A stretch of DNA of 64,000 nt from Minisyncoccota bacterium (GCA_041389005.1 JAWKSR010000001.1:102465-166464), one strand, 5' to 3'. Shown: positions 12,173 through 17,364, numbered from the stretch's first letter. Program-made: numbers and translations. The notes: generated by a model from the letters alone, not told the origin.

Positions 12173-12262
12173 CACCATCTACTGCGTTGCGACTACGGTT
12201 TTGTCAGTCACGGTAGGTTACTACCGCTTCCTCCAAAATCTTGTCGCGCCTTGTATCTGGTG
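12173..12262 (+). repeat. Structured intergenic element, copy 1 (atpE-atpF spacer)
   Basis: A ~90-nt extended hairpin homologous to 17275-17364. Helices: caccatctac/gtatctggtg, gcgac/gtcgc, ggttttg/caaaatc, and an apical cggtag-gtta-ctaccg. Confidence 0.7.
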
Positions 12263-12301
12263 CACCCTGACACGCCCTATAAATTTCTAAAGAAATTTAC
12301 T

Positions 12302-12751
12302 ATGGAACAACTTATTCATGCCTTCGGTATAGATGCCAAGCTGATTGTTATCCAAATTATTAACTTTGGGCTACTTTTAGCTGCATTGTCGTATCTTTTG
12401 TACAAGCCTCTACTTAAGGTTCTACAAGACCGTGAAGATACGATTGCGCAGGGTATAAAGGACGCTGAATCAGCTGCCAAGGCCAAGGCAAAGGCGGCTG
12501 ACGAAAAAAAAGAAATCCTTACTGCCGCTCATAAAGAAGCAGGAGAGGTCGCTCTACGCGCGAAAGAAAGCGCAGAAGAGCAAGCCAATCAGATTGTTGC
12601 AACTGCCAACGACAAAGCAGGAGCAATCGTGACTGATGCTGAGAAGAAAGCCGGAGACATTCAGGCGCAAGCACGAGCTGACAGCGAGGCTGAAATTGCC
12701 AAGCTTGCTGTACTGGCGGCAGAAAAAGTACTTCGCGAAAAGACTTCTTAA
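12302..12751 (+). CDS. atpF: F0F1 ATP synthase subunit b
   Basis: N-terminal TM helix (LIVIQIINFGLLLAALSYLL) followed by a long charged Ala/Lys/Glu helix, in the atp gene order. ATG 12302 lies just past the repeat element. Confidence 0.8.
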   Translation: MEQLIHAFGIDAKLIVIQIINFGLLLAALSYLLYKPLLKVLQDREDTIAQGIKDAESAAKAKAKAADEKKEILTAAHKEAGEVALRAKESAEEQANQIVATANDKAGAIVTDAEKKAGDIQAQARADSEAEIAKLAVLAAEKVLREKTS

Positions 12752-12762
12752 CCACGTATGAA

Positions 12763-12882
12763 TCCCGTTAGAAGTTATGCAGTTACGGGTTTCAAGCAAA
12801 CTAAACTAGAATTACTAGAACTGTTACAAGGTTACGTTATTACATTAATCTTTGGTTGCATCGCAACTGACTTCTAACGGGA
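12763..12882 (+). promoter_or_regulatory. Long-range hairpin filling the atpF-atpH spacer and ending on the atpH start codon
   Basis: Perfect 13-bp inverted repeat: tcccgttagaagt (12763-12775) and acttctaacggga (12870-12882). Further inner pairing agtt..atgca / tgcat..aact. The last paired base is the A of the atpH ATG. Confidence 0.55.
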
Positions 12883-13256
12883 TGAAAGATCACTACATTA
12901 AAGCTGTTATTCAACTCTTGAAAGATGGGTTAGAGCCCAAGGCTGTATTTCGTGATCTGGTGCGCGTATTAGAGGCTCGGCATCATCAAAAGCTTTTACC
13001 TGCTATCTTAGCTGGTGTTGCTAAAGTGTATGCCAGTGCTCGTGGCTCTGACCAGCCAAAGGTTAAAGTGGCAAATGCTACGGTATCAAAAAAAGATATT
13101 ACTGCTGCCCTTAAGCTTCTTAATGTAGAAAAGGACCCCATTATCATTGAAGACGATACACTTATTGGCGGTCTGACCGCTACCTACCAAGATAAAATGG
13201 TAGACACTTCGTATAAAACGGCATTAACAAGGTTGTATCGAAGTATTAAACATTAA
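12882..13256 (+). CDS. atpH: F0F1 ATP synthase subunit delta (short, ~124 aa)
   Basis: C-terminal OSCP-like motif [25 protein letters not shown], positioned between atpF and atpA. Confidence 0.75.
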
Positions 13257-13284
13257 TCACCCACACCCTAATTATTCACTACCT

Positions 13285-14831: not shown

Positions 14832-14862
14832 ATACTACGGGAGGCAGTATAAGTAAACAACC

Positions 14863-15800
14863 GTGGCACTAAAACAGGTAAAAAACAAAATAATTTCCAC
14901 GCAAAAGACTGGCAAAGTGACCAGTGCAATGGAATCTGTCTCAGCTGTAAAAATGCGTAAGAGCCAGGAGAAGGCACTACAGGGGCGTCCGTACGTCTTT
15001 GCCGCTATGCGCATCCTCGCGCGACTCACCAACTCATGGGATGGTATACATCACCCACTTACTCAATCAAGGAGTGGAGACCTGTCTGCGTCCGGAAACG
15101 GACAGGCAGGCAAGCGACTACTGGTGATTGTGACCAGTGATAAAGGTCTCGCAGGGAGCGTGAACAGTGCCGTACTCAAAAAGGCTGAAGAAGTGCTCAA
15201 TACTGCTGATGTATCAACTTATGATGCTATCTGTGTCGGTCGAAAAGCGGTTGACTTTGCCCGGCACAATGACCTGGAAATTATTCATGAATACACTAAC
15301 GTGTCAGATGATGTCTCGGTAGACGATGTGGCGGGTATGACTGAGGCGGCAGTAAAAGGTTTTGCTGAGGGTACATACAACCATGTGCGTGCTGTATCAA
15401 AACTTCCTTTCTACCTTTGAACAACTACCAACCAAACGTCAGGTACTCGCCCTAGACCTGGCTGAAATCCACTATGTGATGAAGGGCATCGCTCCCAAGA
15501 CCGGTAAGTATGCAGATAATGAAGAGGCATCAGCTACTCACACACTTGATTATACCGTTGAACCATCGCCAGAGGCAGTACTTGATACGTTGATTCCACA
15601 GTTGGTGCAAGTTATGTTTTACCACGCACTTACTGAAAGCAAAGCCTGTGAGCATTCAGCCCGTATGGTGGCCATGAAAAATGCCACTGATAAGAGTAAA
15701 GAGGTGATTAAAGCACTGACAATCGAATATAACAAACCGTCAGGCGGCGATTACAGCCGAGGTATCGGAAATCACCGCTGGCGTAGAGGCAATGAAGTAA
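14863..15800 (+). pseudogene. atpG: F0F1 ATP synthase subunit gamma, two frameshifts
   Basis: ORFs 14863-15420 and 15362-15820 join as ...NHVRA(V)YQNFLSTFEQLP. The canonical C-terminus YNK(A)RQAAITAEVSEITAGVEAMK* is reached only after a second shift near 15735, with its stop at 15798-15800. Confidence 0.85.
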
Positions 15801-15882
15801 CTCAGTGTACTGAGTTTTAAGTGGTTACTGACCATTTAAAACTCGGCGGTACCGAGTAGATTAAAACAAATAACAATAAATT

Positions 15883-17273
15883 ATGAGCACAGAAACCAAA
15901 ACTAAAACAACAGCGGGAACCATCACGCAGATCATTGATTCAGTAGTAGACGTTTTGTTCACTGCGGGTGTCGGCACTCCAAAATGCTTTAAAAGTGACT
16001 AAAGATGACGGCGACACACTGACGCTTGAAGTTGCACAACACGTAGGTCTTGACCGGGCGCGCTGTATTGCGATGGAAGACACTCAGGGACTAAAGCGTG
16101 GTATGAAGTGACTGACACTGGCGCTGCTATCTCAGTGCCAGTGGGTGAACAGTCCCTCGGACGTCTCTTTGCAGACGTTCTTGGTGACACCCTAGATGGT
16201 AAAGAAACCCCTCGGTACCGATAATACTCGTGCTATTCATCAAGAAGCACCAGCCTTTGTAGAACAGTCGACTAAAACTGAGGTTTTGAAACTGGCATCA
16301 AATCAGTTGACTTGCTCGCACCTTTTATTAAAGGTGGTAAAGTCGGTCTGTTTGGTGGTGCTGGAGTAGGAAGACTGTGCTTATTCAGGAGCTTATCAAC
16401 AACGTAGCCTCAGAACATGGCAGGTATTCAGTCTTTGCCGGAGTAGGTGAGCGAGTACGTGAAGGAAACGATCTCTACCATGAGATGAAAGACTCTGGCG
16501 TGCTTGATAAAACAGCACTTGTTTTTGGTCAAATGAACGAGGTTCCTGGTGCGCGTGCTCGTGTGGGATTGACTGGTCTTACTATGGCAGAAGCGCTACG
16601 TGACTCTGGTGGGGGTAAGGACGTACTTTTCTTCATGGATAACGTCTTTCCTTTACTCAAGCCGGACAGGAAGTGTCTTCACTTCTGGGACAGTATCTTC
16701 TGCGGTAGGGTACCAACCAACTCTGGCAGAAGAGATGGGTAAAATGCAGGAGCGTATCACCTCTACGAAGACCGGGTCTATTACTTCAGTACAGGCGGTA
16801 TATGTGCCAGCTGATGACCTTACCGACCCAGCACCAGCCACGACCTTCTCACACCTTGATTCAACAGTGGTGCTTTCTCGTCAGTTAGCTTCGCTTGGTA
16901 TTTACCCCGGCGATTGACCCGCTTGAGAGTAACTCTTCAGCGCTTGATCCACATGTTGTGGGAGAGGAGCATTACCGAGTCGCACAGGGAGTAAAGTTGG
17001 TACTCCAACGCTATAAAGACCTGCAAGACATTATTGCGATTCTGGGTATTGAAGAACTATCTGAAGAGGATAAGCAGACAGTGTACCGAGCTCGTAAGAT
17101 TCAACGCTTTCTCAGCCAACCATTCTCAGTAGCGGAAGTATTCACCGGTGCGCCAGGCAAGTACGTGACCCTCGAAGAAACCGTAAAAGGCTTTGGTGAG
17201 ATTCTTGATGGTAAACATGATGATAAAGGAGAGCAGGATTTACATGAAAGGGGATATTAGTGAAGTTAATTAA
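15883..17273 (+). pseudogene. atpD: F0F1 ATP synthase subunit beta, heavily fragmented (at least 8 frame changes by hand)
   Basis: Beta-subunit segments occur in all three frames ([119 protein letters not shown]). The Walker A reads GGAGVG-(aa)-gact, with the Lys codon one A short at ~16371. Confidence 0.85.
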
Positions 17274-17274
17274 C

Positions 17275-17364
17275 ATCATTTGCTGCGTTGTAACTTGCAG
17301 TTTCGGCGGTCACCGTAGGTCTACTACGTCTTCCTTCAAAACTTTGTTACGCCTTGCATCTGAT
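17275..17364 (+). repeat. Structured intergenic element, copy 2 (atpD-atpC spacer)
   Basis: Homologous to 12173-12262. Helices: atcatttgc/gcatctgat, gtaac/gttac, agttt/aaact, and an apical cgtag-gtcta-ctacg. Confidence 0.7.

Follow-up and report, generated by a model that had tools for sequence, protein, structure and literature searches.

The stretch of DNA analyzed here (64,000 nucleotides [nt] of a Minisyncoccota bacterium, GCA_041389005.1, JAWKSR010000001.1:102465-166464; hereafter the window) carries an ATP synthase (atp) operon in which a structured element of about 90 nt occurs twice, after atpE and after atpD. A preliminary description had presented the pair as an element of this operon, formed by selection on RNA structure, and two structured copies are indeed present, at 12173-12262 and 17274/5-17364/5. 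We conclude that both sequences probably belong (probability, about 0.6) to a large, uncatalogued family of dispersed, stop-codon-anchored hairpin repeats that resembles the repetitive extragenic palindromes (REPs), enterobacterial repetitive intergenic consensus (ERIC) sequences, and miniature inverted-repeat transposable elements (MITEs). The preliminary description had itself held that copies scattered in unrelated places would mark a generic repeat, and such copies were found: they lie next to dozens of unrelated genes and occur inverted, in tandem, and with a patchy distribution. That two copies within an operon covary is no proof of operon specificity; a dispersed repeat family yields the same signal.

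Results

The two copies in the window share one hairpin

The core of copy 1 starts 15 nt past the atpE stop codon. The core of copy 2 lies just past the frame-restored atpD stop, as had been reported, but the offset is 1 nt and not 2 (scores and coordinates are collected in Table 1). The two cores can be aligned end to end, again as reported, and are identical at 68 of 92 columns, which is about 75%. The extended hairpin that they form is the same, with a minimum free energy (MFE) of -30.6 kcal/mol for copy 1 (z = -4.3 relative to dinucleotide shuffles) and -22.9 kcal/mol for copy 2 (z = -2.6). The RNAalifold consensus of the two contains 25 common pairs, 6 of which are changed on both sides with pairing kept, and it recovers the paired substitutions that had been listed. 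From copy 1 to copy 2, GCGAC/GUCGC becomes GUAAC/GUUAC, a G-C pair becomes A-U, a G.U pair becomes G-C, a G-C pair of the apical stem becomes C-G, and two more swaps fall in the outer helix. The structural match between the two copies far exceeds what chance would give.

R1, a covariance model of this pair, was searched against the window with filters off and scored both at ~110 bits, their own reverse strands at 17 to 23 bits, and everything else at 12 bits or less. An exact-seed repeat finder overlooked the pair because of indels. The view that the element matches no known Rfam family held up: at the gathering threshold, Rfam 15 matched tRNA alone in the window and nothing on the elements, and a scan of 9500-19500 at an E value of ≤10 gave no match on them.

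Each core is enclosed by a longer hairpin (Table 1). The outermost pairs of hairpin 1 use the atpE stop codon TAG, and the 12-bp outer stem of hairpin 2 (17258-17269 with 17370-17381) joins the last atpD codons to their reverse complement downstream. The outer flanks of the two copies are non-homologous, yet they are self-pairing and enclose the atpE and atpD stops.

The fold is maintained in related atp loci and in metagenomes

Related loci were gathered by an AtpA-anchored protein scan that yielded the atp loci of 80 Patescibacteria metagenome-assembled genomes, with AtpA identities of 88 to 65%. R1 found 17 copies in them, all co-oriented with the operon and at two positions, and its successive refinements, R2 and R3, found 47 to 48. 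Mapping of the atp genes by tblastn placed the copies at the sites given in Table 1; 42 of 47 are in the sense orientation and five are inverted, and no copy follows atpA. Several related genomes share the element at the atpE-atpF and atpD-atpC spacers. A copy is carried by 24 of the 80 operons, and close relatives, including the closest (L001), have empty spacers of 14 to 58 nt. Copies are denser inside atp operons (1 per 12.4 kb) than in the flanks of these operons (1 per 91 kb), a 7.3-fold enrichment with a binomial P value of 5e-10, uncorrected for shared ancestry. Two atpE-atpF spacers that are empty according to the models (L019, 235 nt; L026, 155 nt) nevertheless contain long hairpins of the same architecture and arm logic, in which the core motifs have diverged. 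The models therefore do not capture the whole breadth of the family, and 24 of 80 is a lower bound. Two opposed copies lie ~110 nt apart in the atpE-atpF spacer of three loci (L016, 8832-9117; L017, 8810-9098; L018, 8823-9113), such that an mRNA across the spacer would hold the element and its complement; L016 has an additional inverted copy between atpB and atpE.

In the 19-sequence alignment of atp-locus copies obtained with R1, 91% of cells are paired and 21 of the 25 pairs show double changes. The covariation score is 0.63, compared to 0.19 for shuffled alignments; none of 500 shuffles scored as high, and controls with slid pairing partners reached at most 0.15. An independent alignment of metagenomic copies, whose apical helix is partly fixed by the search pattern described below, has 87% of cells paired, double changes in 22 of 25 pairs, and a score of 0.56, compared to 0.14 after shuffling (0 of 500 as high). 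The copies are phylogenetically non-independent, and neither these shuffle counts nor the binomial P value given above are true probabilities. Orthologous arms are both homologous and covarying, those of the window's atpE-atpF copy with L145 and those of L008, L012, and L011 with one another. Conservation of the fold in relatives, with covariation as homologs are added, came out as the preliminary description had anticipated. These data support an element that is structured, whose structure is under selection, and that lies outside Rfam. The contrast drawn earlier between structure selection and a mobile repeat does not stand. Both hold here, and copies of the same genome are more alike than same-site copies of different genomes (see below).

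Copies are dispersed among unrelated genes

The metagenome scan used a degenerate DNA pattern drawn from bases conserved in the core; this pattern matches ~30% of known copies and biases the resulting set toward canonical cores. At least 120 stretches matched. Among the matches listed, 81 loci were examined, and these contain 98 copies confirmed by R2, with scores of 24 to 81 bits and a GC content of 0.35 to 0.70. Only two of the 81 (L121 and L145) are atp operons; the other 79 are not. According to crude, ORF-based gene calls, the genes upstream of the copies belong to 68 Pfam families. Among them are KhpA, EF-Tu, the ribosomal proteins S12, S7, L2, L6, and S1, DnaB, PheS, and ZnuA, as well as penicillin-binding protein, PurH, NusB, RpoD, SMC, acyl coenzyme A dehydrogenase, and a CCG-domain protein. 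Some loci have 66 to 70% GC, tRNA-Sec, or beta-oxidation genes, which suggests that the hosts extend beyond Patescibacteria.

Several of these loci have noteworthy neighbors. A TD-1 RNA (Rfam RF03155, 96.7 bits) occupies 666-793 of L132, 180 nt downstream of a copy, and there are hints that this contig comes from a spirochete-like host and not from Patescibacteria. In L082 (1-881), a copy at 204-293 has a 23S rRNA fragment on one side and, on the other, a group I intron-like match (39 bits, under the gathering threshold). Its better-folding orientation is the one read on the rRNA-sense strand, and the copy may have inserted into the 3' periphery of the intron. Two copies alternate with tRNA-Lys and tRNA-Glu in L134 (27-476), and each stops ~20 nt short of a tRNA. 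There, and in L127, where the copy lies 190 nt upstream of tRNA-Sec, the better-folding strand has the same orientation as the tRNAs; a copy upstream of tRNA-Leu in L158 has the opposite orientation. An association with tRNAs was rejected, as just four copies lie near tRNAs and their orientation is mixed.

A collection of 2.9 million viral contigs gave one match (L081, 18-108, on an IMG/VR contig of 23,967 bp). This copy is at the edge of its contig, which encodes a phage tail tube protein, and a degenerate second core start follows ~40 nt downstream. A phage origin was discarded on the strength of this single match among so many contigs. Plasmids of cultured bacteria gave no blastn match for two subfamilies, Rfam at an E value of ≤1 found nothing on the elements of 20 metagenome loci, and no description of this hairpin family was found in the literature.

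A conserved core is combined with variable, self-pairing arms

Members of the family are imperfect hairpins of ~125 to 190 nt built around a conserved core of ~90 nt, which comprises four helices, loop bases that are invariant, and an apical loop that varies. The outer arms, present in nearly every copy, differ by subfamily or locus but retain their pairing. In 74% of copies, arm pairing lies above the 95th percentile of controls in which arms were swapped between copies. Four subfamilies have conserved arms and are found on many contigs, sometimes repeated on one contig (e.g., L036, L158, and L160), and the arms of atp-lineage copies are locus specific. The invariant unpaired bases are kept across subfamilies and across GC contents of 0.35 to 0.70.

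The TAGGACTTACG subfamily has TA at both ends, and other copies are without such flanks. As a target duplication these flanks are ambiguous, because TA is self-complementary and could belong to the repeat. In the GATGGCGTCGC subfamily, a second conserved small hairpin, GATGCTTT-TTTGCG-AAAGCATC, lies 15 to 25 nt past the element (L083, L105, L120, L122, L140, and L142); the repeated unit is therefore composite in that host. Head-to-tail tandems are seen in L051 (three copies, 16244-16579) and L143 (two copies, 4340-4555), and their period of ~122 to 134 nt fits a unit consisting of the core and two ~16-nt arms. A small ORF within the element was also considered and rejected: the sense-strand core has no start codon, and nothing is conserved on either strand.

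The hairpin is anchored at the stop codon of the upstream gene

Anchoring was assessed as the presence of a same-strand open frame of ≥60 codons ending near the core, with a mirror test on the opposite side. Such a frame ends 0 to 57 nt before the core in 97 of 147 copies, with a sharp mode at 13 to 19 nt, compared to 44 of 147 in the mirror test, where the spread is flat and broad. When only exclusive cases are counted in the unbiased metagenome set, the upstream-gene side prevails by 28 to 8. The hairpin base was also located from the arms, by local arm alignment in place of MFE folding with 45-nt flanks, which over-extended the arms. Relative to the first nucleotide of the stop codon, it sits between -5 and +3 nt in 36 of 71 copies, and in 50 of 71 it includes the stop or coding sequence. 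In spacers where the core abuts the stop, such as atpD-atpC, the final codons of the gene recur as their reverse complement in the 3' arm (up to 18 of 18 nt, in L006), and arms in L006 and L010 are perfectly complementary to the local upstream sequence over 16 to 18 nt. Empty orthologous spacers are without the last-codon complement. The orientation of the element relative to the upstream gene is usually constant.

The strand antisense to the upstream gene folds better

Of 139 full elements, 135 are more stable on the strand antisense to the upstream gene (-55.3 versus -43.7 kcal/mol); for cores alone, the count is 133 of 139. The antisense strand of hairpin 1 (12153-12282) folds at -57.0 kcal/mol as RNA, and that of hairpin 2 at -46.6 kcal/mol, compared to -38.1 kcal/mol for its sense strand. 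The preference persists with DNA energy parameters, which give -25.1 for the antisense and -18.6 for the sense strand of hairpin 1. Random segments from the carrier loci show a strand difference of 0 ± 7.7 kcal/mol, and atp coding segments slightly favor the sense strand, the antisense being more stable in only 75 of 200. On the + strand of the window, GC skew is positive, and the folding strand is on the leading-strand template.

Mismatches point the same way. Transition mismatches in the arms read as G.U on the antisense strand 67 times and in the reverse sense 15 times; base composition, which predicts just 1.3 to 1, was rejected as the source of this asymmetry. Read on the sense strand, the arm mismatches comprise 49 C.A/A.C, 65 pyrimidine-pyrimidine, and 11 G.T; the first two classes turn into the tolerated kinds, G.U and purine-purine, when the antisense strand is read. 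The invariant bases UC...CU(N)C on either side of the apical helix, and UC/UC close to the base, are unpaired on the sense strand, whereas on the antisense strand they form 5'-GA/3'-AG tandem sheared pairs beside a G-Y pair. The sense strand has a single conserved wobble, U15.G. Counts of G.U and A.C in the 25 model pairs do not decide between the strands, because a few subfamily-fixed mismatches dominate them. Since stability, G.U bias, mismatch spectrum, and loop-base pairing agree, the structure under selection is most likely that of the antisense strand, as RNA or as single-stranded DNA. The original assignment of the selected structure to sense-strand RNA is not upheld, given that the other strand folds better in 135 of 139 copies and pairs the invariant loop bases.

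Copies resemble others in the same genome

The two window copies are mutual nearest relatives, with 74% identity to each other and at most 70% to any copy elsewhere. Copy 1, which lies between atpE and atpF, is 70% and 64% identical to the atpD-atpC copies of L002 and L008 and at most 56% identical to any atpE-atpF copy. Mean identity is 61% for pairs from the same genome and 54% for pairs from the same site in different genomes. Copies are therefore duplicated or homogenized within genomes and turned over between genomes. Orthologous copies also persist in place, as their arm homology shows.

Discussion

Family membership, dispersal, covariation, strand asymmetry, stop anchoring, and enrichment in atp operons are observed features of this element. 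A scheme that would unite them is one in which copies are gained, lost, duplicated, and homogenized within genomes while resident copies keep their pairing in place. Spread would occur by transposition or copying, with a single strand (DNA or RNA) as the recognized substrate. The mRNA would carry the weaker, pyrimidine-rich complement, and the G.U and tandem G.A pairs would belong to the selected antisense strand. In the Paceibacteria clade of the window, atp spacers, chiefly those after atpE and atpD, are favored residences, which would explain the two copies in the window operon. In the atp transcript, the hairpin might decouple neighboring cistrons or form a barrier between them, like REP and ERIC sequences, but as a side effect or co-option and not as the reason for its existence. 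Liang, Rudd, and Deutscher reportedly found in 2015 that REP hairpins within ~15 nt of a stop codon influence translation termination, and Newbury is said to have described in 1987 an effect of the malE-malF REP on mRNA stability. The role in subunit dosage proposed in the preliminary description survives as a possible secondary effect.

Comparison with known systems

REPs and bacterial interspersed mosaic elements (BIMEs) are dispersed imperfect palindromes that lie downstream of coding regions, in the gaps of co-directional as well as convergent gene pairs, as singles, inverted pairs, or clusters and are patchy among strains; REPs are bound as single-stranded DNA by the REP-associated tyrosine transposase (RAYT) and act as RNA hairpins in mRNA (PMC3733652). 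The present family is likewise dispersed, patchy, and found in tandem or inverted arrangements, and many copies have a G(T/C)AG motif on the better-folding strand. However, REPs measure 20 to 40 nt and have an unpaired terminal GTAG/CGTC tag, whereas the family measures 125 to 190 nt, has a 25-pair core, and carries GYAG within a helix. No RAYT was seen beside any copy among the commonest neighbor families.

MITEs that fold as RNA, with documented effects on mRNA stability, include ERIC (intergenic repeat unit [IRU]), Neisseria Correia/NEMIS, Bacillus cereus bcr1, and RUP/BOX (PMC3733652, PMC3184786). The family is similar to them in size (theirs is ~100 to 170 nt) and shares with them a hairpin over the whole length, an intergenic and co-transcribed position, both orientations, and division into subfamilies. 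Compensatory changes have been reported for bcr1. MITEs, however, have conserved terminal inverted repeats, a target-site duplication, and a parent insertion sequence, whereas the family has a conserved center and variable ends, no unambiguous duplication, and no parent element in the flanks examined. Integron attC sites are imperfect palindromes of up to ~140 nt that directly follow an ORF, often over its stop; their structure is better conserved than their sequence, and their antisense strand is the one that folds and functions. The family recalls these sites in that 135 of 139 copies fold better on the ORF's antisense strand. In contrast to attC, both window hairpins are without R''(RYYYAAC)/R'(GTTRRRY) boxes at their ends, and copies are mostly single, in atp, ribosomal protein, EF-Tu, and tRNA contexts, and not in cassette arrays beside an integrase.

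As a stable hairpin after a high-output cistron, the element also resembles a 3' stabilizer, partial terminator, or RNase III site, and the placement after atpE and atpD fits. It differs in having no U-tract, in placing its weaker strand in the mRNA, in following unrelated genes, and in being absent from most related atp operons. Canonical Rho-independent terminators were rejected, a T-rich tail being present in 25% of copies in the sense and 16% in the antisense direction against a background of 14%; a terminator scan of the window copies matched nothing except copy 2's small apical stem (17314-17328). A riboswitch or 5' leader was rejected because the element is anchored to the upstream stop, occurs in both orientations, and precedes unrelated genes. 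Also rejected were tandem interspaced guide RNA (TIGR) arrays (PMC12045711), which are reported to consist of short repeat-spacer units with unpaired spacers, whereas the variable segments of the family pair with each other. Repetitive mitochondrial hairpin elements and GC clusters are small, look mobile, and invade intergenic DNA as well as sequences of rRNA or introns (PMC2800124). The L082 copy may be compared with them by analogy only, as hosts, sequences, and sizes differ. The family differs in defining features from REP, attC, terminator, and riboswitch alike, and probably also from classical MITEs.

Alternative explanations

Several observations weigh against a REP/ERIC/MITE-like repeat. 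The upkeep of pairing in place in orthologs argues for a host-level or cis function, for which a purely selfish repeat has no need. The core is better conserved than the ends, unlike in classical MITEs, and the flanks inspected include no clear case of target-site duplication. No transposase, reverse transcriptase, or recombinase recurs in 109 neighboring ORFs, for which the 25 commonest Pfam families were listed, such that a single match could hide; the commonest Pfam families of 53 upstream ORFs likewise include no transposase. The P value of the 7.3-fold enrichment in atp operons ignores the shared ancestry of the loci. Because the 64-kb window has no copy outside its atp operon, even with the broad model R3 and filters off, the element could be effectively atp restricted in this genome. 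Nor does the reading explain how an antisense-strand structure could matter within co-directional operons.

The enrichment leads to the reading closest to the preliminary description, in which sense-strand RNA acts in cis in atp mRNA to end, protect, or process the upstream segment and so provides the c and beta subunits in excess over b and epsilon. The sites preferred in relatives, after atpE (22 copies) and atpD (12 copies), would suit such a role, as would the 7.3-fold density, the sense orientation of 42 of 47 copies, the strong structure of the sense hairpins (z about -4.3 to -4.7), and arm pairing kept in place in orthologs. REP and MITE hairpins can, moreover, stabilize or destabilize flanking mRNA (PMC3733652). 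We nevertheless consider this reading unlikely. Of the pattern loci, 79 of 81 are not atp operons, just 24 of 80 related operons carry a copy, and copies follow the low-stoichiometry genes atpG and atpB but never atpA. Five atp copies are inverted. The sense strand is also the poorer fold, its invariant loop bases are unpaired, and T-rich tails, at 25% versus 14% background, are scarce. Finally, atpA, atpG, and atpD are frameshifted in the window, and dosage tuning is therefore moot there. If the antisense strand is the selected one, the functional molecule might instead be an RNA of that strand, such as a protein-binding platform, processing signal, or ribozyme, arising by antisense or read-through transcription and sense oriented in stable-RNA operons. 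The greater stability in 135 of 139 copies, tandem sheared G.A pairs with a G-Y pair found only there, and mismatches of tolerated kinds (49 G.U and 65 purine-purine) are what such a molecule would show, and the orientation agrees with the tRNAs in L134 and L127 and with the 23S rRNA/group I intron transcript in L082. But the tRNA-adjacent copy in L158 is oppositely oriented, the element has no evident promoter, most copies sit in co-directional operons where antisense transcription is unexpected, and neither strand matches Rfam, and we regard this explanation, too, as having little probability.

The same asymmetry would be expected, with RNA irrelevant, of a single-stranded DNA substrate of a recombinase or of an HUH or tyrosine transposase, comparable to the attC bottom strand or RAYT-cleaved REPs. 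The strand-specific fold is obtained with DNA parameters as well, the location 3' of ORFs with an antisense folding strand parallels attC sites, and the folding strand is on the leading-strand template, as judged from the GC skew of the window. Tandem or inverted pairs occur in L051, L143, L114, L151, and L016 to L018, and REP DNA is recognized by RAYT in single-stranded form (PMC3733652). Against this proposal, which we find doubtful and hold to be quite unlikely, the flanking genes are core housekeeping genes and not cassettes, the ends of the window hairpins have no RYYYAAC/GTTRRRY boxes, no recurrent recombinase or Y1 transposase is found nearby, and a hairpin of 125 to 190 nt with a conserved center is unlike both REP (20 to 40 nt) and attC (conserved ends). 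A neutral inverted repeat under no selection, with double changes produced by quasi-palindrome correction (template switching or arm-to-arm conversion), is very improbable. Perfect arm complementarity over 16 to 18 nt in L006 and L010 is easier to reach by one-step copying than by stepwise selection, and same-genome copies are homogenized, as such correction would have it. Yet invariant unpaired bases are kept across subfamilies and across GC contents of 0.35 to 0.70, and orientation and spacing relative to stops are non-random. DNA-level correction is also strand symmetric and cannot yield one-strand folding in 135 of 139 copies or a 49:11 excess of mismatches that are G.U on that strand. More speculatively, and with low probability, the element could be a strand-specific, non-autonomous mobile hairpin, active as antisense RNA or single-stranded DNA, that homes to the stops of highly transcribed genes and gains its outer stem on site, where the upstream flank, last codons included, would be copied by fold-back. 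Such a hairpin would explain the 16- to 18-nt arm complementarity, the fixed orientation, the excess of G-to-A-type arm mismatches, and why no direct duplication of the target is seen. In a host-side variant, the antisense-strand hairpin may be a selected DNA-level signal at gene ends.

Implications

Patescibacteria genomes are tiny and dense, with little non-coding DNA, and for this reason a structured element of 125 to 190 nt that persists in numerous copies and lineages is conspicuous and needs explaining. A conserved multi-helix core with variable ends, a base anchored at stops, and a folding preference for the opposite strand are a combination unseen in known REP and MITE classes. If the strand preference is mechanistic, it would represent a new route by which short elements of reduced genomes spread or label the ends of genes. 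With the covariance models, the family can be annotated in metagenomes, and insertions in atp and ribosomal protein operons are natural experiments on intercistronic hairpins.

The atp operon and other features of the window

TABLE 1 Hairpin elements and atp genes of the window, with the placement of copies in 80 related atp loci
Feature	Position (nt)	Strand	Remarks
atpB	10973-11815	+	Intact
atpE (c subunit, 88 aa)	11891-12157	+	From ORF list; tblastn to relatives, 58-88% identity; upstream of copy 1
atpE stop codon TAG	12155-12157	+	Within 5' arm of hairpin 1
Hairpin 1, whole (~125 nt; 5' arm, core, 3' arm)	12155-12279	.	Fold of 12150-12285, -42.6 kcal/mol, z = -4.3
5' arm of hairpin 1	12155-12172	+	Includes atpE TAG; homologous to arm of orthologous L145 copy
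Core of copy 1	12173-12262	+ (model orientation, sense to atp genes)	R1, 109 bits; R2, 83.6 bits; R3, 76.5 bits
3' arm of hairpin 1	12263-12279	+	Pairs with 5' arm (GTCAG/CTGAC, TAG/CTA)
atpF (b subunit)	12302-12751	+	Downstream of copy 1; start 22 nt past hairpin
atpH	12852-13256	+	Intact
atpA	From 13285	+	3' end frameshifted
atpG	From 14863	+	Frameshifted
atpD (beta subunit)	15916-17273	+	Several frameshifts; L008 AtpD tblastn matches in frames 1, 3, and 2; upstream of copy 2
Hairpin 2, whole (~135 nt)	17252-17386	.	Fold of 17250-17390, -40.4 kcal/mol, z = -4.7; inverted-repeat search
atpD stop TAA, frame restored	17271-17273	+	Inside hairpin 2; C terminus regained after 1-nt frameshift near 17238
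Core of copy 2	17274-17365 (ends 17274/5 and 17364/5)	+ (model orientation)	R1, 110 bits; R2, 81.9 bits; R3, 75.7 bits
atpC (epsilon subunit, 82 aa)	17403-17651	+	Downstream of copy 2
atpE-atpF spacer, related loci			19 sense and 3 inverted copies
atpD-atpC spacer, related loci			12 copies
atpG-atpD spacer, related loci			3 copies
atpB-atpE spacer, related loci			3 copies
After atpC, related loci			1 copy
Outside operon, related loci			9 copies, including triple tandem of L051

Between 14660 and 17245, atpA (at its 3' end), atpG, and atpD are broken by at least seven frameshifts, none of them at a long homopolymer. Intact genes include atpB, atpE, atpF, atpH, atpC, and most others of the window. 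The frameshifts reflect either pseudogenization of the F1 genes in this genome or a local misassembly of the stretch.

Two further stretches of ~3.5 kb each, 48900-52400 and 56400-60100, are nearly without ORFs of ≥120 amino acids (aa), with coverages of 0.19 and 0.10 versus 0.7 to 0.98 elsewhere; neither matches Rfam at the gathering threshold. At 48901-48968 lies a near-perfect 32-nt inverted repeat, 88% complementary and with a 4-nt loop, whose arms hold AAAAAA and TTTTTTT, which places a T-run on both strands. This repeat, which has no relation to the hairpin element, resembles an intrinsic terminator for both directions.

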